64,000 bases of DNA from Amoebophrya sp. A120. Its lineage: Eukaryota > Protista > Dinoflagellata. Each line of letters begins with the position of its first letter. The stretch's first letter is position 1. Under the pieces are notes generated by a model. It saw nothing but the letters and a program-made list of their open reading frames with translations, was not told where the DNA came from and did no database searches. The translations under genes and the position numbers were made by a program. This document shows positions 15,901 to 64,000 of this stretch, piece after piece. The stretch spans positions 154,982 to 218,981 of the forward strand of contig CAJINV010000019.1 of the NCBI GenBank assembly GCA_905178155.1. Direction: 5' to 3'.

Positions 15901-16309
15901 GCCGCTCGGGCGGGCCTAGAGAGGTCGCGAGCGTGTGCCCCTCCTCCGCCGCAGCGGCAGCCATCCCGGTCGCCTATCCATCGCTGTGAGGAGTCGAAGC
16001 TTGTAGAGAATTCGCTAACTTTTCTGCTCTCATCGTTGTGGTGTGGGCTTTTCATCTATTTTCGCGCGCCCTCGTTTCGGAGATTTTCACTTATTGTCTA
16101 CGTTCGTCATTGCTGCCGTTCTCGCATCTCTTCGCTCATTATGTATTCGAGAAACTAGCCGCCATCTCTTGCGATGTTGCTTCTGCGTCGTGTTCCCCCT
16201 ATGGGTGGACCTTGTTCGAGGTATACTAACTGACCAAACAGCGGAAGCGCTTCTGCTTACGCCTGTCGTATTGATGCCAAAAGCGGAAAAGCTAAGGCAG
16301 GGCCTCCCT

Positions 16310-16725: not shown

Positions 16726-16763
16726 TCAAGCAAGGAGGCCAGCTACTCTCACACTTTACACAA

Positions 16764-16790
16764 CACACCCACACACACACACACACACAC
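16764..16790. repeat. (CA)n microsatellite
   Basis: cacacccacacacacacacacacacac. Confidence 0.8.
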
Positions 16791-17060: not shown

Positions 17061-19650
17061 TCATGCAAATCGACATCGAAATCTAGATTTGGTGGCATTC
17101 GGTTCCATCCGTACTTCCAAAAATTCCAGTTGCTCCTTCGGGTCCAATTCCTGAACGGAGATTATTGTGTCGTGGTAATCCCACACCCCCGGAAACTTAT
17201 GGTCCTGTTCGTCAGGCGTAAACAGGAGGGAATTCTGTGGAGGTGGAGGACGGCCGTCATAATCCTGGCCAAAGTAGCGTCCTCTGGAAAAACTACGTCC
17301 CCGGGACCCCACAGTCAAGACTATGAATTGCAAAAGCATCGCACTCGTATAAATGCATTACAAATGTCTCAGCATGAGAAAATTTGTAATGCTGATCTAA
17401 ATCAAGAAAAAGATTTGTGATGCATGATTGCAATACGAGTACGATACAGTTGCACAGGATAAAGACGCGAGCTCTGCTACAGATAGTATGCATAGCTACA
17501 TAGCTCAAGAAGTTTTTCTCCGTCCACGTCGTAGGCGGGGACGTGCACGACAAACGCCTTCCTACGGGAGTCGCGTAGATATAGTTTGTGTTGACTACTC
17601 ACTTAAAGATGAAGGAGTGAAGATCGAAAAACACGGTATGCTTGGATGCGCTTGAGAGCGCGCTCATCGATCATTAATTCAATACTGTTATGCAAGTATT
17701 GCAGCGTCTGCGTCAGCGTCACAACTCTTACTTTTATCTTGCCGCCTCCAAACCGGGCATGTATTTAAACTATTCGCAGTATCGCGTCGATAATGGGAAT
17801 GGGTCAGGGACGGACTGTTCACACAGGATAGCATGTCGCTCACAACTATCCTGAGAAAAAGCGTACGTACCCCCTCGTGGTCCTATGCTATGGTCCAAAG
17901 TACACAAATGAAGCAACGCTTGGGAGAAGTCATGCATGACAGAGCCCGGCGCGGGCGGGCTCGCAGCAGGAGCAGCAGCTGCTGGTGACTAGCTAGTATT
18001 ATAACCCCGGCCGCATCACAAACTGATGAACACCCTTTGCTCATTAGAGCATGCAACCTTGTTCTGAACGAGCATCAAGAAAAATCCCTCTCACGCGAAG
18101 CCGCATTAAAAACTCTCCTCATGGTTGTCGTTGTACTTGTATCCCAGGCTACATGCATGACAAGTAAAAGTACGGAGAGGCGCCCACGTTTTTGAACAGG
18201 ATAGTCACCTTTTGCATCTCGGTCGGGAACGGACCCAAAAACGTGTCATCGTCAAAATTACCGCTTTATCCACTGCAACTGTGTCTGGGTCGGGATGATA
18301 ATAGTGGAGTTTGTCATGCCAATCGTACATGGCCCGCGAAAATGCCTGTGATGCATGCTCTAGCATCACCGCTCTAACGGAGCCGGAGGCTTGCTCGTGC
18401 CTATCCTTCATGAGAACTGCCCCCGCCTCGTCCGGGCGGTGGCAACAGTCTGAGTGCCTTTTGCTGCTCATGCAGGCCAGGTTTTCCCATGATCGAAAGT
18501 TAGTAAACACAAACGCCATGCTTTTCAGACCCAGACATATTTGCAATCCATACATTTTCTCCGGGAACGGGGATATCGAAGTTATCTGCTGAGACGAAGT
18601 CATCTGAAATAAACTTCTTCCGCCCTTCCCCTTCGCGTAGTTCTTTTTTTTCTTCCGTACCTTGCTGCTGCGCAACTTGCTGGTGACTTCGTCCCTGTTC
18701 TACTTTTTCTCGTTGTGCTTGTTCCTTTTTTCCACCTTCTCTCTCCAACAACGTAGAACTACTGCTCTCTTCCGCTGAGGCACGACGAAACTCGGCTTTT
18801 TTCTCGTTTTCCTGCGCCTTATAGCCTGCTCAGGTTTTACGATCTCAAACGCTACAATAGAATAATGGAAATCTGTGATGTTAGAAGTGCATTATCTACC
18901 CAACTCTCATAGGATTGCACATGACAAGCTCCGGCGTCCCAAACCGCACTACAATCCGGCAAAATTTGTATATGCAGAGAGTGGAATGCTGTCCGAGTCT
19001 GTCTTGCTCGTCATGCAATACGAAATCCAGATTCTATTGTAAACGTTTGAGATTGTAATGTATGCGCAGGTCATATTCCTGTGTTCGTTCTTCTAATGTG
19101 GTTTTCATCATCTCTTCGGCTTTTTCATTTTCCAGAAACGCCGAGCTACTCGTGCTGGACGGAGGCGAGAAATTTTGGTCTTGATGAAGAACTGCTGGCG
19201 CGTCCTGCTCGGCGGAGTCGTGTCAGGTCGCGGTCGTGCTGCTGCTCGAAGATGATCCTGTGATGCCAGCAGCCGCAGCTTCCGCTTTGTTTTGTCTCAC
19301 TTCTCCTGTCGGGCGCCGATCTGTTTCAGGCGGCACAGCCGCGAAGGAGGAATCCTCATCCACAGAAGATGCGGGGTCGGGGTCACCTGTACTAGCAGGC
19401 GATACAACTCGACCTGATACTTGCGAGCTAGATTCCGCTTTTTGAACTTTGTCCTTCTCGACCCGCAGCGCAAAGACCAGAAACGTGGTGGAGGGAGCCG
19501 GGGCAGGTTGGAAAATCCTGCTCGCGTTTGATGTGCTGGTGAGGTGCTGCACACTGGAGGGGGCGGACCGCAGTGTCTTGTACTCGGACATCAAAAGGTC
19601 CTCGATGTGGTTCTCCTTCAGTAGTTGTAGATGAAAAAATGATTCGAAAG
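17061..19650 (-). CDS. Hypothetical multi-exon host gene interrupted by introners; boundaries uncertain
   Basis: Removing introner 17322-17461 plus one TSD joins ORF 17293-17553 to ORF 17061-17339 in frame (ARV|LTVGSRG). Further coding-like segments extend to ORF 19223-19834. Confidence 0.35.
17322..17461. mobile_element. Family-B introner
   Basis: TATGAATTGCAAAAGCATCGCACTCGTA...TACGAGTACGATACAGTTGCACAGGATA; TSD aagac/aagac. Confidence 0.85.
17847..18203. mobile_element. Degenerate family-C introner
   Basis: TATCCTGAGAAAAAGCGTAC...CACGTTTTTGAACAGGATA; TSD not conserved. Confidence 0.5.
18267..18552. mobile_element. Degenerate family-A introner
   Basis: TATCCACTGCAACTGTGTCTGGGTCGGGA...TTCAGACCCAGACATATTTGCAATCCATA; TSD degenerate. 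Confidence 0.7.
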
Positions 19651-20822
19651 CGGCCAGAAGGACTGCAGTGCAGGAGGCGAGCAAAAGAGCTAAATTCCAT
19701 TGTTGAAGACGAAAGTGCGGAGCAACGTGGCGCAGCACCCGCGGTCGTACCACGACGCAACAAGAAAAACTCCGCGGGGGACGGCCACGACGCCGGCGGT
19801 TGTACACGATCACGCTTTGGTCCTCACCCAACATCGTTTCTTCTTTATTCTTAGTAGTAGAACGCCAACTACGCGCGTCGGTGATCGAAGAAAAGTAGGA
19901 ACCGCCCGTCGGGGAACAAGAGCTGAAACGGGTTGTGGTCAGAGGAGCCGCCGATATAAAGATTACGAAGTGGAGGCCGCCGCGTTATCAGTCGTATCGC
20001 CCGTTACTGACAAGGTCGCACACAAAATTGTGTCGTTCTTGTATTAGTCCAGGGACTTCTACTAGTCCCGCACCACGGCGACGAGATGCAATCCGCTGCG
20101 GGAAGAGCGTAGGTGGCCGCACGATAAAAAATCGAAGTATAATTCCGCCAAAATGTTGACTCTATTTCAACACTCAAGTAGCGAACATAGCTCGTTAGGA
20201 TATTCATAGGGTATAGCGAATCAATCAAGTGTACTTAAAATAAGCGTGCTAGCCAAGACCAGATGGCTGGTTTGTGGCGGACTGGAAGGAACTTCTCCCA
20301 CACACTCTCAGATTGCTGACACTCAAAGTATCCATCTCCCTCCAGCACTTCTGTTGAATACAAGTGCGCCCAAGTATCGCCTCAAGAAGTAGAACCACAC
20401 AAAAACAGACGGGAAAACACGTGTTCTACCTGTTGTACAAGAAGACACCTCAAGCCATTATTAGTTTTTGTTTCCCTACCCCTCATCGCACTCCCTTGCA
20501 AGAACATCCCACTCGAAGGTGATAAAACTTGCCACAGGAACTACAGACATGGGAAATGACTGCAGCAGCACACCAGGAAGAGGAACCAAACAAGTTTTGC
20601 ATTTGATTTCATTTCTCTGGTCGTGCATAGTCTAATTATTGCGTCACCCTCAGAGGTTATCTTGATCTTACGATACATTAGCGAAACCCGGTTTGTTCAT
20701 GTAGTTCATTTGTTCTCAGAGTCACAACTGTCGTTAGATTTTCATCTTTCTAGAGAAGTTCATGTCCAGGCGTGCAAAGACACATCAATCCGTGTTTATT
20801 CATGATGAGGCCCGCACCTTGT

Positions 20823-23800
20823 TCAGTCTTCAAAATTTTCATGAAACACGACTTCGCAGTTTTCCACTTTTTCCGTGAGAAACTTCCATTTTCGCCGGAA
20901 GTGCTGCTCCAGCTCGACCTGCAAAAAAGGCGGATACAGCTCCCATGCGTTTTTCCATTCATGCACGACGACTTTGTGTGTCAGCATATGAATTGCAAAA
21001 GTGTCTGAGTCTGGAAGATTGCAACTTGTCATGGTAAATCTCGAGCATGCAAAAATCTGTGTTGCATGAGTCCCAAAAGCGGTATACTTTTGACCAAGTT
21101 GGAAGGAGGTTTCTCATGCAGGATTGGCATGGCAGAGACCTCGCATAGTCTGTCATGCTAAGTCCCGCATTCCAGACCTCATGGGTCATGGAAAATCTGC
21201 ATGACAAGTCTACACTTTTCCAGACCCAGACATTTTTGCATTTGATACAGCACGCTGCAAGACGATGAACCAGGGCTCGTTCTGTCACCACGCGTGCAGG
21301 TCTTCAATTCCTCTACCACCGGACACAGAAACGGGCCGATAACTCGTGATCCCAGCAACGGGTGCTGAGCCTGTAGCTCCGCCGGCGCAGGGGCCGCAGC
21401 CGGTTGCTGTACCGTAGCTGTATCAGTTGAGATCATCTCTAGTGCACGTGCTTGCCCAGAAGCACCACAAGTGGATCCTTGTTTATCGGTCCTTATCTCG
21501 TCGTCGCTGGAAAGAGAAACACCTTCGTGTTGTATCAAACCCTTCCGCACTTTCCTCTCCAGTGTTTCCCAGATGTAGGAGTAGCGCGTTACTCTCTCTG
21601 GCGCTAGGTTGCTATCCCGCATCTCTTCCAGAGAGAGCGAAACGCGATCCCGCACTGTCTCTAGCAACTCCTGGGCATCTGGCTCCAAGCAACGCAGATC
21701 GGCCGGTAGGCAGTGCGCCGTGGTCTTCAGAAGCAGCAGATCGCTCAGCAGGAAAGAATCCGTTGTTCCTCCGCTGGTCGTGCTGGTGCTCGTCGTCGGC
21801 TGTTGTTTCTTAATAGCCGAACTTGTGTTAGCTCCTGAGCTGCCCTGGTATTCGCCGTCAACAGTTGTAGGAGAACTCTGTTCAACATCTACTTTCAGTT
21901 CCTCTGCCGTCTGATCGTTGCCACCGCCATTTGCAACATTCGGGTACTCCGGATCCTGATCGTTGAGCCTGCCGTTCTCCGTAGCAGTAGGTGGACGACT
22001 CCAGTTCGTAGCACCAACATTGGTAAAAACCATAGGCGAGGACGAGTCGCTTCCCTTCCCGGACTTCCTCCGCAGGTGTTCGACAACCACTCTCTCCTCC
22101 AAAACCTTCAGATTCCACATGCGGAAAAGCCATAGATTGAGTGTCTGCAGCGAAAACCGGTCCTCTACAGCAAGAGTGAACCCCGCACGCAGAAGCAGTT
22201 CGCTGCTCTGCCACCCGTAAATCTTCTTTCGGATTTTCTTGTCAAATTGCGGGGAAAAGGTCCTTTCCGTCCGTTTTGAGGCAAACTTGACGAAAAAGAC
22301 GGAAAAAGTTTTCAAACAGTCGGAATCCAGGTTCGAAAAATGTCGTCCGGCGTGCCGCACAAGCAACTCGAGCAGTTCCTGTTCCTCGTGGCAAAACTTC
22401 GCGGAGAGCAGCGTCCGCAACAGCTGCACTACCTGGTAGCCGCGGAGTTGTCCACAACTATCGATAGAGTCGATAGTCCCGGATGATGTAGTTGAACTTC
22501 CGTCACCTCCCATCGGCCTGGGTGCTGATGAATTTAGCCGGTTTAGCACCTCGGCGAGAAGCAGATCAAAATCAGGAGAGCGGCGCCAACTCCGGGACAT
22601 CGAACTTGAAGACCCTAGCACACCTGCTCTTGAGATCGTGCTGCCGTGCGATAGTGATTGTGATGTGTACTTCTTGTACAGCTTCCCTTTCACGACGGCA
22701 TACACGACATTTACCAAGTCCGAATCCGAAAGCTGGCTCGCGGACTTGACACAGTGACGCAAGAGGCTTTCCGCGGTTTGCAACAGCCATTTTTTTTCCG
22801 TCTTCCGGATCCTTGTTGAGCATTTCGCGCAGGAATGCGCGAGGAGCAGGAGAAACTTCGTCAGCTGCTTGGGGGAAAACGCCGCGGGAACAGCCATCGA
22901 GGCTGGTTCGCTTTTGTCTAACGTCCTCGCACGGGGAGGTTGTGAAGGGCCTTGACGTGTTGAAGAAGGTGGGACACCTTCTTCACGTAAAATGTCCGCG
23001 CTAGAAGTACTCGTCAAGTCTGCATTTGTAGTACCGGTGCTCTTCGCGCGCTTGTTCTTATTTTGATGCGAGCCTAGTGGTGCTTCGCTTGTCTCGCCCG
23101 CGGTAGTACACTCCTCCATATTACCCACCTCGGCAGCCAAAATCTGTTCTCTGCGTCGCCTTTTCCGTGCAGAGTTCCGGTTGTCATTGACAAGAAACGA
23201 GTTCAGACGTGCTTGCTGCGAAGCGGCGGCAGAGCTCGTTGCGGAAAACCGCGTTAGCGCCTCGTCGTCGTCCAGAGTAGAATGGTTTACACCATGAACA
23301 TAGTGGTTGCCTTCGGATCGTCCTACACTGCCATCACTTTCCCCAACTGGTCGTGCATCTTCTTCCCCTCGTCCAAGAGAGAAACCATCAATCTCGGCAG
23401 GCAGAAAGTCTTGTCTCGCCCGTTTGCTGATTTCGCTGGTTAGCTTGGTCCACACGACGTCTAGTTGTTCGGGATCAGTGTTTTCGGCGTTGTGGTCATC
23501 GCGGAATTGATTGTCTGCACCGACACCGAATTTATTTTCGTGTTCATCGAAGAGCGCCGTGTTCTTGGGGAGAGATCGAGCAGATGCAGCACAGCCTCTG
23601 GAAGATGCTGGTGTAGTAGGAGTGTTTTTACTCGCTACAGCTCCTCCACTAGTATTTTTCCAACGTGCGTTTTCTCTTGCAGTTTGGTTGTTCATCAAGT
23701 TCGCCAGATTTTTGCATGTGTATTGGTACAGCTCGTGATTGCTCATAAGATTGACGAGTTGTGCCTCGTGCAGTGGTTGTGATTTATTCTTCGTTTCATC

Positions 23801-24034
23801 ATCTCCAACCCCGTTTTGTCTTCCGGTCACGGATGCAGTCCGCGCACTATCAAACAAACTAGCCGGGTCGCCGGTAAAGATATCACCTGCTGGAACCGCC
23901 CCTGTCGGATCGCGCTTATCTGGCAAACGCAGCGACGCAATCGATCTGGCGGTGGTTCTCGGCCGTCCAGTGATCACACCACGAACACCACGTCGCGGAC
24001 AAGGGAACGGCACTATTCGCGATTGAGGTAACAT
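20823..24034 (-). CDS. Large hypothetical protein, possibly organelle-targeted with a C-terminal RAP-like domain
   Basis: The long ORF 21179-24253 (first plausible ATG at 24034, Arg-rich MLPQSRIVPFPCPRRGVRG) runs into an introner. Removing 20987-21247 plus one TSD continues the frame into LTHKVVVHEWKNAWELY...RRKWKFLTEKVENCEVVFHENFED*. The RAP call is a weak impression. Confidence 0.6.
20987..21247. mobile_element. Family-A introner
   Basis: TATGAATTGCAAAAGTGTCTGAGTCTGGAA...TTCCAGACCCAGACATTTTTGCATTTGATA; TSD cagca/cagca. Confidence 0.9.
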
Positions 24035-25792: not shown

Positions 25793-25931
25793 ACTGAAGT
25801 AGAAAAACAAAGAATCCTAGGTAAGTGATCAGCTGTAAAACTGCAGCCCTTCCCGGGTGAGAAAGCCGGCAGTTTTATGCTGACACCACACTAAAATTTT
25901 GTACTGAAGTAGAAAAACAAAGAATCCTAGG
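25793..25931. repeat. 29-bp exact direct repeat, period 110 bp
   Basis: actgaagtagaaaaacaaagaatcctagg at 25793 and 25903. Confidence 0.85.
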
Positions 25932-26128
25932 ATATTACAATCCAAACCCAGAATACAAAGTGTAATTCCAAATTTGCCTGTAACACAATTCTAGTACTTG
26001 TCGCGTCGTCTTTTTAGAAGCGAAGGAGCTCGTCGTAATCAGTATTAACAACATCGAGCTACCTTTCATTACTCTATCCTCCCCACTACAACTTCTACCT
26101 CTTCGACCCACCTCTCCTTTTTCTTTTT

Positions 26129-29100
26129 TCATTCGGTCCACTTTTTCCGCAGCAACTTCGAGCATTCTTCCACAAAAACGTCATCCTTCGCCCCGTGGTC
26201 GTCTATCGCGGCCTGCACCGCGTCCTTCACTTTCTGCAGCACGGGATCCTTCAACTTGTCTGCCGGAATTTGGTCCAACGTGCAGGCCAGGGCCTGGCGG
26301 TACCCGTCCTGCTTCTCCGGGGAGCAGTTCGCGGCGCCGCTGGCTTGACAGGAGAGGTTATTCGCGAGTTCTTGCAGAAGGGAATCGGTCCTTGGGTTCA
26401 GCACAACCAAGACGCCGAGGGACTCCGCAGCCTTGGACCGAACCTGGTGCGAAATAGACAATTTTTTGAGGGAGAAATTTTCTACGAGTAAAAAACTTGT
26501 TGTAAATGCTGGCACAACAACATCCTAAGCAGGTCGCTGTGTCTGTCATTCTGACTGTCAACTAGAACTACCTACTGCAGGTCTAGGCAAAAAAGTTTTG
26601 CAAAGCCCTTCCCGAAACTTATAACCAGAACAAAAATTATACCTCTCCACTCGTAGCGTCCGTGAGACACTTCAGATACGTCGTCTGCAACTGCGGCAGG
26701 AAGGGCCGCAAGGACGCGCCTCCCTTCTTCAGCAACAGTTCCAGCGTCTCCAAGATCGCGATTCGTACGTTCGGCGGAAACCGGTCCCCGACAATCCGGA
26801 TCAGCGGCCCAGTGATTTTCACCACGTACGGCTTCAACGCCGCTTCCGTTGTGTGATCCACTAACTCTCCCAACCCCTTCGCAGTATGCATTGCAAATAT
26901 ATCTGGGTTTGGAAAGATGCAAGGTTTGTCATGCTTGGCTAACAGGACTCTCAAGTCTGTCATGCGGGTTACTCAAAAGCCTCATCCTTTTGTCATGCAG
27001 GAGCTCACTTTGTCGTGCAGAATAGACAACACTGTGGCGCCTCCAAAACTTGTCATACTTGGCAGTCAATCGAGCCGTCGTGGTCGTCTTTCTCCACCAG
27101 CATCACAAGTTTCCACTTCCAGACCCGGACATATTTGTAATGCATACGCAGCTAACAACCGCAATTCGTTGGACCCGTACATCAGTCCGTGCTGGTAGAT
27201 ATGCATTGCAGAAGTATCGTACTCGTACAAATGCTATGCATTACAAATTTCCTCAGCATGAGAAACACAATTTCTAATGCAGATTTACCTTCGGGAACAA
27301 AATTTGCAATGCAAGACTTGCATTTGTACGAGTACGATACTTTTGCAGAGCATAGTAGATCGGATAGAAGGGTTCTAACCCGTTCGGCAACGCCAAACCG
27401 GGGAGCTATTACAGTGAAAAGTGCCCCCCACCCCTGAAATTGCAATAATTTGTGATGCAAAGTTTCCAAATGAAAGGTTTTTGTCATGCATAAAAGGAGT
27501 ATGAATCTTTGTGATGCAGAGTCTAGGTGTGTGTCGCAGCGCTTGCATGACAAGCGCCGCTCTTGCTGGGATCTTTTGCAATACAAATTTTTGCTATTCA
27601 CGATCGGAAATCTGTCATGCTGATACATGCTAGGGGGCGCATGTTTCATTTGGAAAGGTTTGCAATACAAATGCTCCCAAGTTCGGGGGTGGGGGCGTTT
27701 TTCATTGCAATAGGAGCGTCATGCCCTTTTGTTCGGTCGATTTCGTACCCGATTTGTCGGTGACGGACGCTTCTTTGAGGATTAATTCCCGCACCTGCTC
27801 GAGGTACAGGGATTGGTCCTCTTTTTTCGCCATTTTCGTTAACGCTTGGAAGGCCTTGAAGTTCTCCTTCAGGGCAAACTCATCCGGGTCGGAAACCGCG
27901 ATCGGGAGCAGCGTGTCCAGGATCAGGTCCATGATACCTTGGATTTCATAAGTGGAAGTACTCGTATTGCAGTCATGCATTACAAATGCTGTTCCTAAGG
28001 TGGATCCGCATTACAAATTTCATTTCTCATGCTGAGGGAATTTGTAATGCATTTATACGAGTACGAGAGTTTTGCGCAGGATAGTAAATTTCCATGCGTA
28101 TACCGAACAACTTGAGTTCGTCACGCACACACAGCATGGCACATATATTTCAACGAGCACCTCCTTCACACGTATTGAAAAAGACATTGATTAATCTTAC
28201 TTGGCATCTCCGCGTTGGTCTCTTCAAAAAAGACCCTCAATAAAATCCCGCCCGCCGCACGCATCCTGCCCCGCTTCGAGGATAAGCACTGCCCCAACTC
28301 GCCCAATATGATGTTCGATCCCGTGCTCGTCACCTTCTGCAGCAATTTCCGCCCCGCCTCAACTGCGTCATCGATAAAGTCTGCCTGGTCTTCGCTCGCC
28401 AAGGTTTCCAGAATTGGTTCTAACACGTCGGTGATATGGCGGTAAAACAAATGTTCGTCTTCCAACTTCGACAGGGTCGACAATCCGTACAATTGCGCCG
28501 CACTTTGCCACGGCGGCCCGGCTTTGGGTAGCGTTTCTAGAATCACCGGCAGAACCATGTTCGACTGCCGCTGCAGCAACTGTTCCAGGCCGTCGAGACA
28601 TCTCGTGTCGCCCTTGGACAAGCCCTTCAGCAAGCCAGTAATGATCGGATTCGTCGCGGAGGTTCCGACGGAAGAGTAGAGTAACGCCGCGACTTTCGAA
28701 GCGGCGTTGCGGACCGATTCGGAGTTGTCGCACAAAGCTTGTCTCACCGCGGGAACAAGCTCCGAAACGTAGTCGACGAGCAGTTGGCGGGAGCAGTTGT
28801 TGATTAACTCTGTTAATCCAATACAGACACCCTCGCGGACCTGTAGACGAGGTTGATTTTATGTTCATTTTAATATGCGTGATGTTACTGTTTTCAGTGA
28901 AGCTCCTGTAGCTGCGCACGATACATAGCACTGTGAAGATTGTGTGCATGCATAAGTAAGACCTGTTTTCATCATCAGACTGTGTGATTCTTTGTAAGTA
29001 CGTCGTCACTGAAGTTTATTCGGGAGTAGACCAGCCGCACCTGAAAAAGACCCAGCGGAGAACCCCTCCGACGGATCAACTTCGTGGTACAAGACTGGAA

Positions 29101-52831: not shown

Positions 52832-55800
52832 TCACATGATGACACAGCTGCAGGGCTGCGCATTTCCTTTTCGTTTCCCTCCACCCCCTGCTGTGGCATC
52901 ATCGTAGTTGTCGAATTGGTCCCGCTCCCAATTTTCGCCTGGCTGGGGCTCCCAGCCGTAGCCCTCACTTGATTCGGATTCCCCTTTTCTCTTGCCATAC
53001 GCAGACCAGTGCTCGCGCTCGTAGCTCATGTCCTTTCTTCTAGACGGAGACTTGATAAAGTCCTTCCGGTATCAACTGCAAATATGTCTGGGTCTGGAAA
53101 GTTGTGATGCAGGTCACTGAATAATAACCACACTGTAATGCGCCCCCAAGCATGACGACTTCTGTGTATGTGTTGCGTATTCCGCATGAGAAACTGCGTG
53201 TTTGCATGACAGGCAAGAGGAGCTCCTGGTTGCCACGCAGTACAGATACCAGAGTCATGCCAGACTAGCATGACAAATCTCGCAATGTCCCAGACCCAGA
53301 CATTTTTGCAATCCATATCCGGTGCTCGTACGTCGCCATCTTCAACGGGGAGCCGTGGCAGTGCCCGCACACCGTGGCGGCGCCGAAGGACCAATCGAAG
53401 TCTTCCCACTGCAGGAAGAACACGCCGTCGTCCGACTTCACAAAGCTGTTGTGAGGGTTTTTTTTTGGTGAGATAGTAAAATCCTTTCAGAATCATAGTG
53501 TTGTTCTTATAGTTGGAACAAGAGAAACAACACGAACTGCGATTCATCTACTCTGAAGGACGACGAGGCAGGATCCAGAAAGACCGATTTTTTTGTTTTG
53601 TTTCTCGTCATGAATCTCTTATTTGCAGCATGCGTGGATTCTTTTTCTTGTTTTGTTTCCACTTCCCCACGATAATGCTAATGGCTCTTTGACATGGATA
53701 GTAGCAGCGCACAAAGGTTTTTCTTGTGTTCGTAGACCGACCGCTTGCTTGCTCTTTTTGGTCCTAGCGATAAATCTGACTTCTGATCGGTTGGTTCCGA
53801 AGGACTGAACTGCAGGGCCAGCAGATAGCAGAGGTAATAGAGGTAGCGATAGCCATATTAGGTCGTTCACAAAACGCGCAACTTCCTATGTATTCAATAG
53901 CTCTATCTTACAGTACGGGGCAACAGTAGTGCGTCGGGTTCATTTGGAAGCGAGGATGAGATGGTGCTAAGAAAGGCTTCTTATTTCGGGCCGAGAGAGA
54001 GTACAAATTCGCCGCTTCATCTTCAGTTGGAGGTGGTGGTCAATGGGCTCAAAGGCGGAAAAGAATGGCACCAAGGGAAATGGGACAAGTATTAACGGGA
54101 TGAAGTTAATATCATCTGCGGAGATGAGAATCCATCGCAGAACATGCGGGATAACGCCGTGGACAGGACCTTTCATCCTCCTCCGTGGCGCCACATCTAC
54201 TTGGCCTCACTGTGGTCGGCGGGGCGATGATCATGCCGTTGATGGTACTTTCCGGCTTTTGAAGTAAAAGGAATTATTGCGGAAACAGGAGAGGACGCGA
54301 GGGTGACAAGAATAACTCAAGGGATGTCGGCTGGAAATAGTACGAAGGAAGCAACAACGCGAGCACGAAGAAGTGGCGGCCGATTCAGACTTGAGTTCGA
54401 TATATATCACATCTACATCATGCATAGAGGGACACCTCCACGCGTTTTCATTTCTTTTCCCATGATATATGATCACGATTTTCGTGCTGCTGAAAACTCT
54501 CATCTCGGTCAGAATATTGATGTTAGCGGCTCTTTCAATTATACAGACATGCTTTTGATTTGCTCCTTGTCATTAGCGATTGAAGATCTATCACCCTGAA
54601 GATCGGCTTTTGCGTATAAAATTTCCATAGGCAACCGTGATAGAGGTATCCGGAAAAAAAAGCATCCTTCCATTCCTTGCAGTTTTTTGTAGAATTACAC
54701 CGAACTTCGAAGGTCAAGCGCTATGCTAATCTTGGGCTTTCTTGATGTAGTACAAGTGTGACAGCAGGATGAGGACCTACAGCTAGACACCAATCATGGC
54801 ATGTAAATGCATACCAGCAGCTACAAAAGCTCGTCGCTTAAGTTCAGGATCAGCTGTTAGCGCGTCAGAAGATTCTGCTGGTGGTAGGGAGCTGCAAGAA
54901 TTCTGCTCCATCTTAGCCCGGCTCCAGCAAATCTGCGCCCAGTCTCCGCCGGGCAGCACCACCCGTGCTTGCAGCATGACCGACGCAGCGCGGCCAAGCG
55001 GATGAAAAGCAGGTCAGAATTATCTTCAAGACAAACCAGAAGCGAGGGAAGGTGGGAATAAAGGCTCTGGCAGAAATAATCCACCGACGTAGTGGAGTGC
55101 TGGCCCCAGACGGAAGCAGAAGCGGAAGGGCTGCTGAGGGTGCGTACTGGGACTCCGGGACTGGACTACAACTCGTCTGGGTCTGCAAACAATCAGCGAA
55201 GTTGTAGCGCATCTAATGCGTCTTTCTTTGATCGATCTTCGAGTTGTGATATTGATCAGGAAGCTATAGTTTTTTCTTCGTTAATTTACAGCTGGTGTTG
55301 AGCTTATCCGAGCGCTATAATGTAGCACATAGCTAAATAAGCACTGTAAGCATGATAAATTTTCTAGCTGCGCCAGGTTTCATTGGTGCTGACGTTTCTC
55401 CTGCCACAACAATGGCACACGAAGAGCGAGTTCCTACTGTAAGTTGAAGGTCTTATATTGCATACTAGTTGTGTCATGCGAACTGACGATGTCATTAGTA
55501 CTAGTGGGCACGGCCGTATTAGAAGATAGGAGCAAGGTTGCATTTATTTCGTCTCAGTTTCCTCGAGCACCCTAAATCGGCGTGGCCGTGGGGATATTAT
55601 CTTCTATGCCGTGTTGCAATACAAATTCCGAGTCCCCAATTTAGCACTATCTTTTTTTCGTTCATGCAACACGCCATTGATTAATTAAAACTTCCCCTAT
55701 GTACGTTACTTTCAGCTGTACTTGTGGACTAGCATCTTCATCCTGCCACCCTATTAATTTACACCTGTTACAACTTCTCTTTCCGAAGCCCCGCATTGTA

Positions 55801-58800
55801 AGTAGTGCCGCTGGCTGCAACATATTACGACCTCTACAAGAACCAGAGAGCTTCAGCCCTGCAGTTGCAGTTCATTCCATTTCCAGCATTGATTTCCAAA
55901 AACATAAGTCAAGCGCTACACTTTCCTTTCTCCTGATGTAATCTTCACGAGTACGTAGTGCAACGGTTGGTTTTATTCTAGAATTCGCCTGCGTAGCGCT
56001 CCACCCAGCGGCCAGCGAATAGAATCTTCACGAAGAAGAAGAACGGCATCATGCCAGCTTCTAAGTAGAGACCACATTCATCACTAAAGCAAACAAATGA
56101 CAATAAAGAGTAGAGAAACCAAATCAAAATAAACAATAAGTACTTGAGCGCCTTGGCAATCTCGGGGTAGTAGTCCCAGACCGCGCTCTGATCGGCCCAG
56201 AGTCCCGTCCATTCCCCGTGCCCCCAGGGATTTCGGATTTTCACGAACTTCGCGCGGGTACCGCCCTTCAGCCAGTACTGCCCCGCCGGGCACTTTTCGT
56301 ACATTTTCGCGGTGTCCGCGTGTCCGGCCATCTTCCGGATCATGGAGCCCTGCACCTGGTTTGGCTGTTTGAAGCTGATGGTGTCCTATGCATTGCAAAA
56401 ATGTCTGGGTCTGGAAGAATGCAACTTGTCATGCTAAATCTGAAACATGCAAAAATCTGTGTTGCATGATTACCAATAAAGCTGTTCACTTTTGAGAAGG
56501 CCGAGAGACAGTTTCTCATGCGGAAAAGGCATGGTAAAGATCTCACAAAATCTGTGACGCTAGGGCATGCATCACAGACCTCACACGTCATGCAAAACGT
56601 GCATGACAAACCTGGCAATCTTCCAGACCCAGACATTTTTGCATTTGATATGTCCCCGTTGCGCACGCTCAGCACCTCGTCCGGAAGAAAATTCTTCCCG
56701 CTCGTGGGCGTTTCGTAACACCTATCCACAGTAAATTTCCCGTACACGTACAAAGAAATGCGGTCTCTGCATGACAAAACTGGGCTCCGATCCTAGTCTA
56801 GCATGACAAGTGTTACACGGGAAATTGGTGAAATTTGTGATGCATTTTGTACATGTACAGGAAATTTGTATTTTTGCATAACACCACTTCAGCTTCCCGT
56901 GGTTGCCCTCCAGCTTGAAGTCGTAACTCTTCATGGTCTTCTGCATCACCGTGCCCCGCCACTTCGTGGGGGTCTCCTCCGAGTAGTGCCGGAACCGAAT
57001 CGGGCACCCGGTCTCGTTGACGAGGTGCAGGACCTTTTCGTTTTCCCGCTCCTGCGCGGAGATGGGGGTTTTCGTATGCATTGCAAATGTGTCTGGGTCG
57101 GGAAGGATGCAAAGTTTGCCATGCTTGTCTGGCATGACTGAAGAGTTTGTCATGCGTGTGCCAGAAGAGACCCTTTGACTTGTCATGCAAAAACGCAACG
57201 TGTCATGTGGAGAGCGCTACACTGAGCCGCGCAACTATTTCTCATGTTGCTTGGCTGATGTGCATTACAGAGCATTCACGATTCACAACTCGGCATTACA
57301 AGTTTCCAGACATCCAGGGATATTTGCAATGCATATTTTGCAAAGTCCTGCAAAAACTGCACGTAGCCGTCCCGGCCCCCGCGGGGCATCTCCATATCCC
57401 GCACGTCTAAGATGGAAAACACGTATCCTGAGTAAAAACGTCCCCACCCCAGAGTCACGTTGGTAAATCTGCAACACAAATCTCCAAGGTTTGGAAATTG
57501 TGCATGACAAGTTCTTTCCATCTGCAGTGTAGTGCTGTTTAGCAAGGGGAGCGCATGATAAATTCATTTTCTCATCGTGTTTACTTACAGCATTACAGAT
57601 TCCAAAACACGACTGGAAAGAACGCGTCTCATGGAGATGCGCATTACAAATGTAGTTCCTGTAGTCGCAAATCTGCATGACAACTCTAGGGTGGGACGTT
57701 TTTACTCAAGATAACACGTGCCCGGGGATCAGCCCGTCCTTTCCCTCGCAGCCCGAGGTGGTCATCAGGAAATTTCGGCCGCGGAAGTCCAGCATCTTTT
57801 CCACCGTCATCTGCGGCTCCAGGATCTGGTTGTTGGGGTTGCTGTGCCGTTTCGAAGTTTCCAGCTCGTAAATCTCGGAGCCGGCCGTGAGGGCCTCCAT
57901 CGCCTTGGTGGACCCGATGGGCGTGATGATGTTTTGCATCCCGCCCCGGAGGTTTTGGTAGCACCCCGCCCACTTCGCGAACGCCTTCTCGATCAGGACC
58001 GGCCAGAGCTCGCCCTGGGTGGCGGAGGAAACAAACTTCGGATTGGCGATGTTGCCCCGGTCGACCGGAATGCGGTCGTCGAGCAGCAGCCACCGGATCT
58101 GTATCCTGTGCAAAAGTATCGCACTCGTAGTAATTGCAATCATGCATTACAAATTTTTTTCTGAAGCTAAATCCGCATTACAAATGGTATTTCTCATGCT
58201 CACGAAATTTGTAATGCATTTATACGATTACGAGTACGATACTTTGGCAATGCATAATCTGCCCCTCGACGACAATGCGAAACGTGAACACCCCGAACTC
58301 CGGCACGTGCGTGATGGCCCGCTTCACGAACTCCGGGTCTTCGCGGTACGCGCACGCGGCCAGGATGGACGTGAGCCAGCAATCGCCCACGTTGTGCTGT
58401 CGGATGTCCGTCTCGTGGACGCCGTCCGGCGCAATCAAAAACTCCGGGTGCGATATGTCCGGGTTGTTGGCGATCCGGGACTTCAGGATCCAGGGTCTCC
58501 GCCAGTCGGTGGCGTCGCAAACCTTCCCGTACCCGTTGTCTCCGTCCGGGTCGCATTCCGAGCAAATCACTTTCCGGTCGAACGGGCCGTCGAAATTCAG
58601 ATCCACAAAAAGCGTCGCGTCCTCGTGGATCAACTCTTTCACTTCGCTCGTGCGCAACTGCAGGTCCTTCCCCACGGAATCAATCTGCTTCGCCGTTGCC
58701 TGGGTTTGCTCCTGCCGCACCTCGTTTTTACTCACCTCGCTCATCGCTTTAAAGTGCTGTTTCGCGATCACCGCGGTGATATAGCGCGCCTCCTCGACCG

Positions 58801-61800
58801 CAATATCGGAGTTGAAAGAATCCCGTTGGTGCTCACCCTCGAAGAAAGGACCACGGCGGAGGTGCTCCTGTGGGGCGGATGAGAAATTTGAATTTTTTAT
58901 TTTCGATGTAGTAAACATGAAGTTGACCACCCCACGTCGATTCATGCTAGTTGTAATAGGCCGCCGTCATTTGTTCCCATTGTAGGGACCGCTGGTGCAC
59001 GTCAAACACATAAACTATCATGCGGGGACTACTTCGAATGCTTTTGCTTGCATGTTTGTCGTGGTACCTATAGACACTTTTTTTCATACACTATGTCGAC
59101 AGTGCTTAAGTTGTACATGGTACGTAGTGAAGCTGAAGATATTGAAGACTCATCAAACAATACAAGGTTTATCAAAGACAGTAAGTACAACTAAATACCC
59201 TCCTCCTCTCGTCCCGCGCGCGCTTGTCGATAGCATTCTGTACTTTCTCGTCCCGGTCTCCGTCGTCCGAGGAAGGGCTACTGTGAGAGGAAGTTGTCTC
59301 TACTTCACTGGCCATGTCCGCTTGCTGTTGTTCGCCCTCAAACTGCATCTGGACTTGTTCCGGCGCCGCTTCCTCCCCCTCCTGGGAATGTCTCAAGTGC
59401 ACCGATATCAAATGCAAAAATGTCTGGGTCTGGAATGTTGCCGGGTTTGTCATGCATATTGTGCACCTAGACCAAACTACATGCATATTTTGCATGACCC
59501 AGGACGTCTGTAATGCATGGCCTAGCGTCACAGATTTTCAGAGGGCTTCCTGATGCCTATTCCGCATGACAAATACCCTCCCCGCGTAGCACAAACTAGA
59601 CCCCTCTTGCTGATCATGCAATACAGATTTTTTTAGTGTCCAAAGTTAGCATCACAAGCTTCAACCTTGCAGACCCAGACATTTTTGTACTTGATAACCG
59701 ACCTTCGCATCCCCGCTTTGTGGTTGGAGATCCGCGTCTATCCTGTGCAAAAGTATCGTACTCGTAGTAACCGCAGTCATGCATTACAAATCTCCATCCT
59801 AAGGCAAAACAGCATGACAAATACCATTTGTCATGCTGAGCCAATTTGTAATGCGGTTACTACTAGTGCGATACTTTTGCAAGGCATAGCGTCCGCACCG
59901 AGGAGCCCTCCATGTTGGTCACCTTCTTCACCGCTTTTAGTGGGACCTCCTCGGCTATCAAATGCAAAAATGTCTGGGTCTGGAAGATTGGAAGATTTGT
60001 CATGCACATCTGACATGAGCCATAAAGGCTGTGATGTATGCCCTAGCATCAAAGATGTTCTGAGTGCTTCTTGATGCATATCCTGCATGAGAAATCAATG
60101 CCCTCTCTCCACGTCGCAAAAACTGGAGTCCTATTGCCTGTCATGCAACACACATTTTTTTTTATTTTTTAGAATCCAACAATAGCATTACAAGTTGCAT
60201 CCTTCCAGACCCAGACATTTTTACATTTGATATCGGCGTGCCCGTGCTTGTGGACCGCGGACACGCGTTTGTAGACCTCGACCTGCGTGCCCCGGCGGTC
60301 CTTCTCCAAGTCGGAACCCGGAAAATTCATGCTGTTGTCGTACTCCACGTGCGAACCCAGAATGGAGTCCGCTTCCTCGCTAGTTGGCAAAGAGCCGTAT
60401 GCATTGCAAAAATGTCTGGGTCTAGAAACTTGTGATGCAAATCTACGAACAATGAATCTTCAATTGTGGGCGCGCTGCAATATGCAGCCCAGCATGACAA
60501 GTTTTTCAACTGCTGTGTGTTTCGTTTTTCGCATGACAAACTGCGTTTTTGCATGACAGGCAAGAGGCCCTTTGCCTGCTCATGCATCACAGATTTAAGA
60601 GTCATGCCCGACAAGCATGCCAAACCTTGCATCCTTCCAGACCCAGACATATTTGCATTTGATAAGCCATACTGGCTGACGATCTCCTCCGGAATGACCC
60701 CCTTCAACAGGTTCCGGACGGCTTTCTGGATCTCGATGATCCGCGGCAGCGGGTCCTTGGTGTAGAAAATTGGGCCGGTGTGCTTAATATGCAATACAAA
60801 TATCCCTGGACGTGGACGTCTCAGCGGAAGGATGAACCTGTATTGCGAGTCTCGCATTCCTGAAAAATCTGTATTGCATCATCTTCCTGAGTAACAAAAG
60901 TTCTCGCAGTCTCTCTTGTGGTCATGTTGCAAAAAGGCAGCTTCTCATGCAGACTGTGTATGAGCGGAGAAAGCGTAGTTCTGCAAATTTGTCATGGAGT
61001 ATCCTGCATTTGGAAGTAGAGCTCTCATCAACATCATACACAGCTTAGCATCACAAATTTCCAGACCCAGGTTTCGATATTTGCAATGCATAATTCGAGT
61101 AGCCGTTCAGGTCCGTAATGGGGGCTTCCATCACGATCCGGGTTAAGGGGCACACGCGGGCTATGGAAGTGTAAGAATCGAAATTGACAAAGTCGAAAAA
61201 TTTGTGATGCACAAGATCGATACCAGTCGCGGCCTCAGGAGTTTTCAAGTGGCGCATGACAAATTTTGAGAGCAACAAAATCCGTCTGTCATGCTGTTTG
61301 GGTAAAGAAGACTGCTCCTGTCATGCTACTCTGGCAACACATTGCATACCCCTAAACAGGCCTGCAATCGGTCTCACTTGCCTGCTCCCCAATACAGGCC
61401 TACGGTGCCCTACATTTTATGCATCGCAAATTTTTCGACTTTGTCGATTTCGATCCTGACACATCCATACGGGTTTCGCGCTGGAGCCGCTCCAGGAGCG
61501 ACAACCGGCGGAAGCAGTCCGTTGCCTATCCTGTGCAAAAGTATCGTACTCGTAGTAATCGCAGTCATGCATCACAAATCTCCATCCCAAGGCAAAACAG
61601 CATGACAAATTTCGTTTGTCATCCTGAGCCAAGAATTTGTAATGCGATTACTACTAGTACGATACTTTTGCAGTGCATATTGCCGAGTACCAGCCCATTT
61701 CCATCGGGAGCTTCCCGCGCCGGCGGTTGCCGTCCAGCATGTAAAATTCGTCGAAAAAGACGTAGGACTGCGGGTTTCCCTCCTCTCCGTTCTTCGCCAT

Positions 61801-62205
61801 CCGCTTGCCATCAGGCGCGACCACGCGCAACTCCTTCACCTCGCCCGCCACATACTCGGGCTGGTTTCGCGCGGTGGACCGGGTCCGCAGCCAGCACTCC
61901 TTGCCGCGGTCGGAGATCTCCGCGCCTGCGTGGATGTTCTCAATGTCCACCTTTTTGGTGGCCGTGGGGTTGCTGGCCGGCGCGGCCTCGAAGGTGGTGG
62001 CTTTCCCGAGCTGGATTTTTCGGGCCTTAATATCCAGGTAAAGCTGGTTCACCGACCTTATCGGCTGCTTGTTCACGTACAGCACGCCCTCGTAAGCGGC
62101 ATCCTGGCCCGGGATCTCGATCAAACAGGAAGTCTGCGGGTTGTTGTTCTTCAGCCGCTCCCCGATGCGGGCCGCGTGCGTGAAGGTGATCTCTCCGAAC
62201 GGCAT
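52832..62205 (-). CDS. Calpain-family (CysPc, peptidase C2) cysteine protease with a long N-terminal extension and C-terminal CaaX (CVIM); 13 introners plus canonical introns
   Basis: IRQHNVGDCWLTSILAA (catalytic Cys), LLLDDRIPV, ELWPVLIEKAFAK, GLIPGHVFSI (His, joined across 57424-57713), KIRNPWGHGEWTGLWAD (Asn), DDGVFFLQWEDF after the GT-AG intron 53446-56143. Linking the N-terminal exons (59200-62205) to this gene is inferred. Confidence 0.85.
53070..53317. mobile_element. Family-A introner in calpain
   Basis: Family-A TIRs; TSD tccgg/tccgg; removal restores TYEHRKDFIK. Confidence 0.9.
56387..56650. mobile_element. Family-A introner in calpain
   Basis: Family-A TIRs; TSD tgtcc/tgtcc. Confidence 0.9.
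56723..56880. mobile_element. Family-E introner in calpain
   Basis: TATCCACAGTAAATTTCCCGTACACGTACA...TGTACATGTACAGGAAATTTGTATTTTTGCATA; TSD acacc/acacc. Confidence 0.8.
57075..57335. mobile_element. Family-A-like introner in calpain
   Basis: TATGCATTGCAAATGTGTCTGG...CCAGGGATATTTGCAATGCATA; TSD tttcg/ttttg. Confidence 0.82.
57424..57713. mobile_element. Family-C introner immediately after the calpain catalytic His codon
   Basis: Family-C TIRs; TSD acacg/acacg; removal restores PGHVFSILDV. Confidence 0.92.
58102..58256. mobile_element. Family-B introner in calpain
   Basis: Family-B TIRs; TSD atctg/atctg; removal restores VEGQIRWLLLDD. Confidence 0.92.
59406..59696. mobile_element. Family-A introner
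   Basis: Family-A TIRs; TSD accga/accga. Confidence 0.9.
59739..59888. mobile_element. Family-B introner
   Basis: Family-B TIRs; TSD gcgtc/gcgtc. Confidence 0.9.
59956..60232. mobile_element. Family-A introner
   Basis: Family-A TIRs; TSD tcggc/tcggc. Confidence 0.9.
60398..60664. mobile_element. Family-A introner
   Basis: Family-A TIRs; TSD agccg/agcca. Confidence 0.88.
60788..61092. mobile_element. Degenerate A-like introner
   Basis: TATGCAATACAAATATC...GATATTTGCAATGCATA; TSD not conserved. Confidence 0.6.
61162..61469. mobile_element. Family-F introner
   Basis: TATGGAAGTGTAAGAATCGAAATTGACAAAGTCGAAAAATTTG...CAAATTTTTCGACTTTGTCGATTTCGATCCTGACACATCCATA; TSD cgggc/cgggt. Confidence 0.85.
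61527..61679. mobile_element. Family-B introner
   Basis: Family-B TIRs; TSD ttgcc/ttgcc; closely similar to 59739-59888. Confidence 0.9.
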
Positions 62206-63541: not shown

Positions 63542-63909
63542 TCAACGCATCTTCACCCTGGGGGGTAGTTCCGTGGTCAATTTTTGCGCGACCGGAACTA
63601 CCTTCTGTCCATCACCGCTTTCCTTTCCCTCCCGTGGGTCGTGGTCAACATGAATATGATCCGTTTTCTTGTAAAGCTCGTCACCGTGATAGTAGGCATC
63701 CCAGGCCCCCTCTCCGGCCTGCGCCGCTTTGCCATCTGGAAACTGGATCGCGTCTGCATGGGCGTGCTGGGAATCGGATTCCTCCCAGATGCGGTCGACA
63801 ACGTGGTCCACATCATGATGAATTTTGTGCCACAAGTCGTTGTTTTTGTCGAGCAAGTCCGCTTGAAGCCCGTCGGTGGCGGTGTGCACGGTGTCCAGCA
63901 GGATTCCCA
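63542..63909 (-). CDS. 3' exon of a hypothetical His/Asp-rich protein; the gene continues beyond the window
   Basis: The part of ORF 63542-63940 downstream of the introner reads MGILLDTVHTATDG...LPPRVKMR*. Confidence 0.55.
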
Positions 63910-64000
63910 TATCAACTGTAAAAATGTCTGGGTCTGGCAATTCTGAGACTTGTCATGCACTTCGCAATGCCTATTCCGCATGACAAATTCCCTCTCCGCG
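63910..64000. mobile_element. Family-A introner, truncated by the window edge
   Basis: TATCAACTGTAAAAATGTCTGGGTCTGG followed by TGTCATGC motifs. Confidence 0.8.

Follow-up and report, generated by a model that had tools for sequence, protein, structure and literature searches.

The elements that interrupt coding exons in the stretch of Amoebophrya sp. A120 DNA analysed here (64,000 nucleotides, called the window below) are introner elements of this organism that are kept in the DNA and are most likely excised by the cell's own spliceosome, relaxed in its demands and using the element's hairpin as a ruler; the probability that we give to this reading is about 50%. We are highly confident that these are known A120 elements and that they are removed at the level of RNA; that the spliceosome catalyses the removal is an even bet.

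Neither the elements nor their end rule is new, and the window elements are the published introner elements of A120. The accessible part of Farhat et al. 2021 (PMC7789003) gives A120 ends as TAT, seven looser bases and at least three As, and direct repeats as 3-5 nt (length is called variable, and a 5-bp example is shown), with 29,850 copies in 1954 families; it describes hairpins, RNA-supported removal and mixing with GT-AG introns, as found here. The elements of the window and of further loci (464 kb) lie in the A120 genome and have TAT-N7-AAA ends, 3-5 nt repeats, families and non-GT-AG removal, and they do not differ in kind from the introners in that part of the paper. The shared TAT/ATA and 5-bp rule, offered as new in an earlier sequence-only reading of this DNA, was thus anticipated by the TAT-N7-AAA ends and the 5-bp example of Farhat et al. 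The same accessible text calls the border unknown and mentions no internal motif, whereas the window elements show a uniform 5-bp repeat, one junction fixing the cut, and a phased motif that links the types. Gozashti et al. 2025 (PMC12130899) list 58 A120 introner families, and many of these, like the window elements, are TIR DNA elements (150-320 bp) whose splice calls are largely non-canonical; the duplication lengths assigned there by an automated method vary between 2 and 6, in contrast to the uniform 5 bp here.

Thirty-six complete elements were found at 17322-64000 (140-357 bp each, 8779 bp in total), in line with the earlier estimate of about 30 elements of 140-360 bp, and two further copies lie 5' of 17322, at 2502 and 9327. 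As had also been claimed, nearly all ends are TAT...ATA (exact in 33/36) and 5-bp repeats flank the elements; the repeat was perfect in 25 elements, had one mismatch in 6 (hence 31/36 within one mismatch), and two or three mismatches in 5. These elements, together with a decayed copy inside a GT-AG intron and a copy cut off at 63910, are as follows, with types named by sub-terminus:

17322..17461, no strand assigned, type B (GTATCGTACTCG sub-terminus), perfect 5-bp repeat, putative coding context
17847..18203, no strand assigned, C-like, decayed repeat, putative coding context
18267..18552, no strand assigned, type A (GTCTGGGTCTGG sub-terminus), decayed repeat, putative coding context
20987..21247, minus, type A, perfect repeat, towards the 3' end of a frame of 1096 codons (1126 once removed)
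26885..27146, minus, type A in GCN1, perfect repeat, X4 record 5 arithmetic
27200..27354, minus, type B in GCN1, perfect repeat, transcript contigs and GCN1 reconstruction
27407..27712, minus, type E (GCCCCCCAC sub-terminus) in GCN1, perfect repeat, transcript contigs and GCN1 reconstruction
about 27950..28083 (left end approximate), minus, decayed type B within GT-AG intron 27938-28200
31893..32141, minus, type A in GCN1, X1 record 1 contig skips 31888-32141 (249+5 nt)
33957..34208, minus, type A in GCN1, GCN1 reconstruction
34257..34508, minus, type A in GCN1, sense 3' end ATG, not ATA
34638..34891, minus, type A in GCN1, inverted relative to 33957
34939..35089, minus, type B in GCN1, GCN1 reconstruction
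35404..35552, minus, type B in GCN1, GCN1 reconstruction
35615..35936, minus, type D (ATCCCCCCTCCCC sub-terminus) in GCN1, GCN1 reconstruction
36276..36538, minus, type A in GCN1, sense 3' end ATC
37262..37527, minus, type A in GCN1, GCN1 reconstruction
37603..37895, minus, type C (ACGTCCCCAC sub-terminus) in GCN1, GCN1 reconstruction
39426..39748, minus, type D in GCN1, repeat mismatch at sense position 2
45292..45570, minus, type C, repeat copies differ at position 4
45600..45749, minus, type B, repeat copies differ at position 2
45919..46149, minus, single-copy type, repeat mismatches at positions 3-5, junction that cannot slide
46445..46695, minus, type A, perfect repeat
46772..46971, minus, old single-copy type, TAC...ACA ends on the sense strand, 2 repeat mismatches
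53070..53317, minus, type A, perfect repeat, in a 133-codon frame
56387..56650, minus, type A in the calpain-domain gene, end-rule scan and open frame
56723..56880, minus, further type (TTCCCGTACA sub-terminus), perfect repeat
57075..57335, minus, type A, one repeat mismatch
57424..57713, minus, type C, perfect repeat
58102..58256, minus, type B, perfect repeat
59406..59696, minus, type A, perfect repeat
59739..59888, minus, type B, perfect repeat
59956..60232, minus, type A, perfect repeat
60398..60664, minus, type A, one repeat mismatch
60788..61092, minus, A-like, repeat mismatches at positions 1, 2 and 5
61162..61469, minus, further type with 56-nt inverted arms, one repeat mismatch
61527..61679, minus, type B, perfect repeat
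63910..64000, no strand assigned, type A cut by the window end

An end rule tuned on these elements returned 40 pairs from the window, 24 with a perfect 5-bp repeat, compared with a mean of 0.77 pairs and no perfect repeat in 30 block-wise dinucleotide shuffles; a second scan without the TAT requirement recovered the same set. In the independent loci the repeat was exactly 5 bp in 91 of 106 anchored pairs, with no base preference, and 2, 3, 4 or 6 bp in 8, 1, 1 and 0 of them. Thirty-eight window elements clustered into 5 multi-copy clusters and 11 singletons, and one 30-nt element end was present in at least 128 loci. The elements fit the definition of MITEs (short, non-coding, with inverted ends, a fixed-length target duplication and many copies), and all 6 that were folded had strong terminal stems and energies 4-12 SD below mononucleotide shuffles. 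No GT-AG borders could be placed on 34 window elements (six placements each, sense strand), which bears out the claim that no consistent placement exists; such borders were possible in 4 of 227 oriented elements of the loci, and border dinucleotides were arbitrary at every placement tested.

The host genes, and the GT-AG introns found in transcript contigs of the first of them, are:

26129..40467, minus, GCN1/ILITYHIA-like gene, 3055 aa after removing 14 elements (with 5 nt each) and 6 GT-AG introns
45235..47776, minus, 3' part of a host gene, 468 codons open across 5 elements
56143..62205, minus, calpain-domain gene, open frame of at least 931 codons once 12 elements and one modelled GT-AG intron (58868-59198) are taken out
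26444..26642, minus, GCN1 intron, donor GTAT
27938..28200, minus, GCN1 intron, donor GTAA, contains a decayed element
28841..29286, minus, GCN1 intron, donor GTAT
29602..29760, minus, GCN1 intron, donor GTAC, has the elements' internal motifs
30453..30799, minus, GCN1 intron, donor GTAC
31193..31382, minus, GCN1 intron, donor GTAC

The reconstructed GCN1 was identical over aa 303-3055 (2753 aa) to P0001, a record named Amoebophrya sp. A120 (100% identity for exon 32142-33956), and 53% identical to the orthologue P0002 over its length; residues at the junctions are conserved in P0002 and in P0003 (named ILA). The junction peptides LLAA|KGLGEL and PFYPIY|QHGL are those that had been proposed, and they match homologues. 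Flanks of other sizes also gave long products (+2, 3069 aa; +8, 2843 aa), and thus it is the transcript contigs, not the frame alone, that set the flank at 5. The claim that the elements interrupt conserved coding sequence holds for GCN1, the only gene tested for conservation; for the elements at 17322, 17847 and 18267 the coding context is putative. The product of 56143..62205, in which Cys, His and Asn motifs were identified by eye, is presumably of the calpain family.

Transcript contigs of runs X1 and X4 were compared with 17 elements. Among the rows listed, spliced contigs lost the element plus 5 nt exactly at 4 junctions and partly at 2 more, which gives RNA evidence for at least 6 of the 17 elements of the compared stretch (up to 46000); the calpain-domain gene and the element at 60788 lie beyond it. 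Record 5 of X4 was short by 1200 nt, the sum of two GT-AG introns (462), three elements (723) and 15. In a 5623-nt contig of depth 35 the skipped form is the main path. The X1 and X4 contigs also skip GT-AG introns and are therefore spliced RNA (their RNA nature is read from these skipped introns, and no run is on record as RNA). The mapping of transcript junctions that the sequence-only reading had proposed thus came out in its favour, as did its view of the elements as known Amoebophrya non-canonical introners removed precisely alongside GT-AG introns, since the same contigs skip both. Raw RNA reads of run X8 fell on element ends (83 reads, 82 of them aligned only in part) and never on exons, and were uninformative for these junctions. 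Frame-keeping cryptic GT-AG pairs lie within 12 nt of 8/33 elements, and none of these nearby sites accounts for the observed junctions.

The position of the cut was read from the junction at 45919, where, of six possible cuts, only the one designated “4+1” yields the loose end seen at 45914 in both X1 and X4. There the cuts lie 1 nt ahead of TAT and 4 nt past ATA; the product mixes the two repeat copies, and the junction has no microhomology. Transcript pieces of the same host gene cover 44953-45286, and the X4 piece ending at 45286, beside the element at 45292, keeps at least 4 nt of the upstream repeat copy, which is compatible with “4+1”. We conclude that these introns probably extend from 1 nt ahead of TAT to 4 nt past ATA; the basis is a single junction that cannot slide, seen in two runs from one sample and taken from a loose-end row and not from raw reads. 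Repeat mismatches fell at third codon positions in 24/40 cases, with 14/17 at repeat positions 4-5 and 8/18 at positions 1-2 (p=0.035 for the contrast; 0.054 with window elements included), a pattern more readily explained by a wobbling cut than by a fixed one. A test for A/T drift on the free repeat copy ran the opposite way at positions 1-3 (13 vs 4) and was uninformative, in part contrary.

All nine top A120 motifs in the accessible part of Table S4 of Farhat et al. 2021 (PMC7789003) start NT, as this register would have it, but the bias may stem from an aligner preferring GT.

The element ends appear to differ with the direction of transcription. Changes in the first two letters of the end triplet numbered 0 at the sense 5' end and 6 at the mirror end in 226 oriented elements of the loci (p=0.03), and 0 and 3 in 33 window elements; together these give 0 vs 9 (p=0.004) after one mis-parse was dropped, the count for the loci before that drop being 1 vs 7 (p=0.07), and all these counts come from related copies and from an element finder that permitted one change per triplet only. 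The dropped case, L056 (TGT...ACA), proved on inspection to be an inner stem. Third-letter changes to TAC or TAA numbered 5 at the 5' end and 1 at the mirror end. The orientation method was right for all 31 callable window elements.

Cut register and TA polarity together point, at about the probability given above, to a hairpin-guided, relaxed spliceosome. At the few junctions read, the RNA loses the element plus 5 nt, and the intact GCN1 frame contains copies in both orientations. In this gene the copies at 33957 and 34638 are 91% identical and inverted to each other, and those at 33957 and 34257 are 92% identical in the same orientation. The donor in the “4+1” register would be N-T-A-T, like the GT-A-H donors of GCN1 with only +1 freed (all six RNA-supported GT-AG donors of this gene begin GTA); the stem would join the ends in place of U1 and AG, and the acceptor would be set by distance. 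A fuller version, which we advance tentatively and would rather bet against, is that A120 introners of every type belong to a single uncharacterised transposon superfamily whose RNA is spliced by a U1-less spliceosome without +1 G or AG, reading an N-TA donor and an acceptor four bases from the hairpin base, so that an insertion would be a finished intron wherever it landed and whichever way it faced. The elements showed no preference for a branch point, an AG or a +1 G, though a normal spliceosome needs these.

The rival that survives best, possible but in our estimate somewhat improbable, is a separate non-spliceosomal machine (a structure-reading endonuclease plus ligase, or the system proposed for euglenid introns) that would cut RNA at fixed offsets from the stem. 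Such a machine would suit elements that have strong terminal stems, are removed in both orientations and lack a GT, AG or branch consensus; Euglena introns, with their offset stem and longer 3' overhang (N3 vs N5-6), have been argued to use other proteins (PMC12501133), and U1 snRNA is given as undetected in A120 in the accessible part of Farhat et al. 2021 (PMC7789003). Set against this, conservation of the 5' TA appears to follow polarity, and this end allows the same third letters as the local GTA-H donors, and element remnants lie in GT-AG introns here, suggesting a continuum; according to that same part of Farhat et al., nearly all spliceosomal proteins were found in A120, and 15% of canonical A120 introns have the same layout of inverted and direct repeats. 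The evidence leans to the spliceosome over a separate machine.

Excision from DNA in the expressing stage, as for ciliate IESs, with transcripts made from excised templates, is very improbable. In its favour, the ends resemble TA and the target is restored exactly; however, in the DNA-like run X5, 8 pieces among those listed (depth 23-31) stop within elements and read through GT-AG introns without change, and contigs at single-copy depth run into elements from both sides. X5 is possibly the window's own source and represents one stage at most, and contigs lose rare variants. The 45919 junction combines both repeat copies without microhomology, and conservation appears to track the polarity of transcription. 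We know of no separate somatic nucleus in the group to which Amoebophrya belongs, which also counts against excision from DNA. The sequence-only reading had allowed for this route; X5 keeps the elements and leaves it little room.

Slightly less probable still is that the skipped form arises by reverse-transcriptase jumps, for which a hairpin with a direct repeat is a known substrate, while the mRNA keeps the elements, either untranslated or bypassed by the ribosome between matched codons. Whatever the phase, a 5-nt repeat does include a complete codon, and 23/40 repeat mismatches are synonymous. Yet the 45919 junction has no microhomology, and a 4-nt match one base away (giving an out-of-frame +6 product) is not the one assembled; the skipped form is the main path at depth 35; and 29/33 elements would shift the reading frame if kept, whereas GCN1 is intact and well matched to its orthologue. 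That MITE insertions have turned the host genes into dead pseudogenes, an idea to which the elements at 17322, 17847 and 18267 (putative coding context, two with decayed repeats) might lend themselves, is refuted for GCN1 and hardly credible, as this gene is transcribed and spliced, has conserved junction residues and reads through 3055 codons without a stop, the outcome that the earlier reading had favoured.

That reading had taken the families to be otherwise unrelated; instead, all element types have the terminus in common, as well as an internal GCATNACA motif at spacings of 31-33 nt. There were 1380 such motifs in 75,170 element bases and 1180 in 386,773 outside bases, and 324 of 826 spacings were 31-33 nt compared with a mean of 33 (maximum 49) in 300 random placements, a count inflated by related copies; the spacing recurred in all five types and in the “other” class. 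By their sequence the types thus appear to behave as for one MITE superfamily. The motif was rejected as a branch point, being symmetric on the sense strand (68 forward vs 81 reverse). The superfamily would have been mobilised by a DDE transposase or integrase with a 5-bp stagger and no target preference, and the putative enzyme would bind the common TAT-N7-AAA ends and outward-pointing GCATNACA boxes about three helical turns apart. To our knowledge, TAT...ATA ends with a 5-bp duplication match no nameable transposon superfamily. The window and 464 kb of loci yielded neither a transposase nor a long copy with an ORF, so that the suggested long elements with the same TIRs around a transposase ORF did not materialise there; three perfect-repeat candidates above 500 bp (631, 697 and 2459 bp) had no transposase-like ORF by eye, and ORFs of 1-26000, compared with Pfam (14 ORFs) and PHROGs (6 ORFs), gave weak zinc-ribbon matches only, below cut-off. 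The accessible part of Farhat et al. 2021 (PMC7789003) reports no transposase in A120; in A120 family 38 of Gozashti et al. 2025 (PMC12130899), inverted ends occur together with integrase-like ORFs.

Three other systems resemble the elements in part. Euglenid non-conventional introns (Nomura et al. 2025, PMC12501133; PMC11282704) are likewise mostly non-GT-AG and of probable transposon origin, and share direct repeats that make junctions slidable, a terminal stem offset from the cuts (by 1 and 4 here, at one junction) and a longer 3' overhang; but their signature, N3CDG...CH'GN5-6|R, is absent from the window elements (N-TAT...ATA-N4), the lineage is unrelated, and circular excision products are reported there. 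The MITE-derived introns of Fritillaria borealis (Henriet 2019, as cited in the accessible part of PMC11282704) also have inverted repeats and a target duplication, and reportedly represent a recent mass gain excised by a changed spliceosome; their borders are mostly AG-AC or AG-AT after TAC, whereas the window elements have arbitrary target bases at both junctions and no AG-AN. Emigrant/Lemi1-type MITEs, from the accessible part of PMC1636448, are similarly short and non-coding, with inverted ends, target duplication and repeated subterminal motifs; for the window elements, in contrast, no partner transposase was found in the window and 464 kb of loci.

The likely cut position and the apparent 5' TA polarity are small additions beyond the published work. 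The register N|TAT...ATA-NNNN, the TA polarity and the shared phased motif lead to direct tests of branch points, key bases and transposase binding. If the spliceosome of this organism drops G+1 and AG and uses a hairpin ruler, this would change the view of what is essential in a splice site, and hairpin-ruler splicing, if true, would explain how transposons may enter exons at almost no cost.

We scanned the window for inverted ends flanked by direct repeats, without demanding TAT, and the set that emerged was one of TAT...ATA elements with 5-bp repeats; the set was then enlarged by an end profile and a pairing rule. The sequence-only reading had rightly recognised this system of elements: 36 complete copies of 140-357 bp were found at 17322-64000, 33 with exact TAT...ATA ends, and the 5-bp repeat was perfect in 25 and carried one mismatch in 6 of the 36. 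With the pairing rule 40 pairs were obtained, of which 24 had perfect repeats; 30 shuffles gave 0.77 pairs on average, none perfect. At least 128 loci in metagenome contigs matched one 30-nt element end, and all 80 among the matches listed were JACKZZ contigs. Within these loci the repeat was exact in 91 of 106 anchored pairs, with no base preference, and a general finder scored 261 of 357 as exact and 308 of 357 with at most one mismatch. One locus (L068:958-7872) held eleven elements within 7 kb, with some intervening exons of only about 25-100 nt. The earlier statement that no GT-AG pair fits the elements consistently was borne out, since none was possible on the sense strand in any of 34 window elements at six placements each; GT-AG could be placed in 4 of 227 oriented elements from the loci.

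The elements were also held to fall into otherwise unrelated TIR families, and this was refuted by termini (TAT-N4-(T/A)G(C/T)AAA) and an internal box, GCA(T/A)NA(C/G)A, common to all types. The box is oriented toward the nearer end, in arrays written GCATNACA, and occurred in the window 149 times in 7996 element bases versus 51 times in the 54,800 bases outside elements; in the loci, 324 of 826 box spacings were 31-33 nt (33 expected), this phasing being found in every type. The box was rejected as a branch signal because it is symmetric on the transcript; the phased boxes are predicted to be protein-binding sites on DNA. No autonomous copy was found among window ORFs at 1-26000 or in 464 kb of loci. 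Two GT-AG introns of the GCN1 gene, 27938-28200 and 29602-29760 (minus strand), contain a decayed element or internal boxes, and may be elements becoming, or landing in, ordinary introns.

Features observed outside the GCN1 gene were as follows.
1-16000: GC-rich (53-62%), with unannotated ORFs around a virus-like gene; possibly an integrated Polinton-like element.
2502-2669: element with a decayed repeat, in the GC-rich block.
8300-12450, plus strand: virus-like replication gene with a frame of 985 codons, in which a GKT P-loop and motifs resembling those of polymerases were recognised by eye; the closest Atlas clusters (0.88-0.89, a lead only) are viral DUF5906/D5 primase-helicases; no match in Pfam, PHROG or a homologue search.
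9327-9488: A-like element between this frame and an upstream 369-codon frame; the two share one frame once the element plus 5 nt is discounted.
13905-14504: zinc-ribbon ORF, with weak Pfam matches below cut-off.
16381-16638: 104-bp tandem unit, 2.5 copies, with an AC run after it at 16758-16790.
21179-24469, minus strand: frame of 1096 codons that matched nothing in Pfam; element 20987 lies close to its 3' end.

The claim that removing an element plus one repeat copy restores the frame was upheld in the GCN1 gene, where taking out six GT-AG introns and 14 elements, every element together with 5 nt, gave a protein of 3055 aa, identical from residue 303 to the end with P0001, a record named Amoebophrya sp. 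A120, and 53% identical to its homologue P0002; the residues at element junctions fall in conserved regions of the alignment. Exon 32142-33956 showed 100% identity to P0001. Removal with 0, 1, 3, 4, 6 or 7 additional nt stopped the frame near residue 260; removal with 2 or 8 gave 3069 and 2843 aa, so frame alone cannot fix five nt. Nor is P0001 independent of RNA, because transcripts guided the building of this genome model (methods text of Farhat 2021, PMC7789003). The P0001 model begins 302 codons downstream of the likely start (40467-39560, minus strand), and the region upstream aligns with P0002 from residue 13, spanning element 39426. Two further genes, their identity judged by eye, stay open across 5 and 12 elements.

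Removal was then seen in contig sets X1 and X4, which are from one sample and whose transcript label is a guess. In X1 record 1, 31887 is joined to 32142 (249 + 5 nt gone); in X4 record 5, 1200 nt are missing between 26441 and 28198, equal to 462 (two GT-AG introns) plus 723 (three elements) plus 15. Since GT-AG introns are also skipped in them, these contigs are spliced RNA, and they provide RNA evidence for at least 6 of the 17 elements in the stretch compared. Excision from DNA, the other option entertained by the sequence-only reading, is opposed by the DNA-like run X5, although rare variants would be lost from it and it may be the source of the window itself: its depth was flat, near 30, outside elements, and eight pieces among those listed all end inside elements, which are therefore kept in that DNA. 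In a raw RNA run without coverage of these exons (X8), one element end (34179-34208) recurs in about 70 reads, fused to other sequence; the copy in question is kept in a transcript from the organism or strain of that run.

Perfect repeats leave a junction slidable, and diverged repeats make it non-slidable. At 45919-46149 the repeat copies differ at positions 3-5; X1 and X4 both align up to 45914 and then with letters from 46151, and of six registers tested only four bases from the upstream copy plus one from the downstream copy fits. The observed junction is without microhomology, and a 4-nt match one base away, whose use would take out six nt and break the frame, was passed over; together these points argue against template switching. 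At 45292 an X4 piece stops at 45286, requiring at least four upstream repeat bases. The same register was probably already implied in Farhat 2021, because its top A120 motifs all start NT and the Fig. S23 legend places repeats 1-5 nt from splice sites; its Fig. 3 calls the border unknown. Of 17 mismatches at repeat positions 4-5, 14 hit the third base of a codon, versus 8 of 18 at positions 1-2, a bias that speaks against a strictly fixed cut, wobble being a post hoc hint; an A/T-drift test on the mismatches had a contrary outcome at positions 1-3.

With the cut in this register, the donor sequence is N-T-A-T; the six GT-AG donors that have RNA support all begin GTA, the next letter being T, A or C. 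Locus elements were oriented with a codon model that was right for all 31 callable elements of the window, and 227 of 322 received an orientation. First-two-letter changes numbered 1 at the sense 5' end versus 7 at the mirror end in the loci (p=0.07); one oriented element was rejected on inspection as a mis-parsed inner stem, giving 0 versus 6 (p=0.03), and 0 versus 9 with the window added (p=0.004), in small numbers of related copies. Third-letter changes (TAC, TAA) numbered 5 at the sense 5' end versus 1 at the mirror. A symmetric DNA process would not be expected to produce such polarity.

The elements are an already known system. The text of Farhat 2021 gives 65% non-canonical introns in A120, a motif of TAT, seven bases and AAA, repeats of 3-5 nt, no U1 snRNA, no transposase and an unknown mechanism; Gozashti 2025 (PMC12130899), in the portion available, reports 58 families for A120, as well as a TIR element that carries integrase-like ORFs. 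The Euglena offset-stem code (Nomura 2025, PMC12501133, as excerpted) was defined from non-slidable introns. In the passages at hand, a 2024 review (PMC11282704) treats Fritillaria and euglenids, and Gozashti 2022 (PMC9860276) merely cites Farhat. Searches of the open literature and of the Farhat supplement text turned up neither the phased motif nor the polarity, and no later paper on the mechanism; figures and subscription journals may hold them. What is added for A120, namely register, polarity and phased motif, amounts to thin but testable leads.
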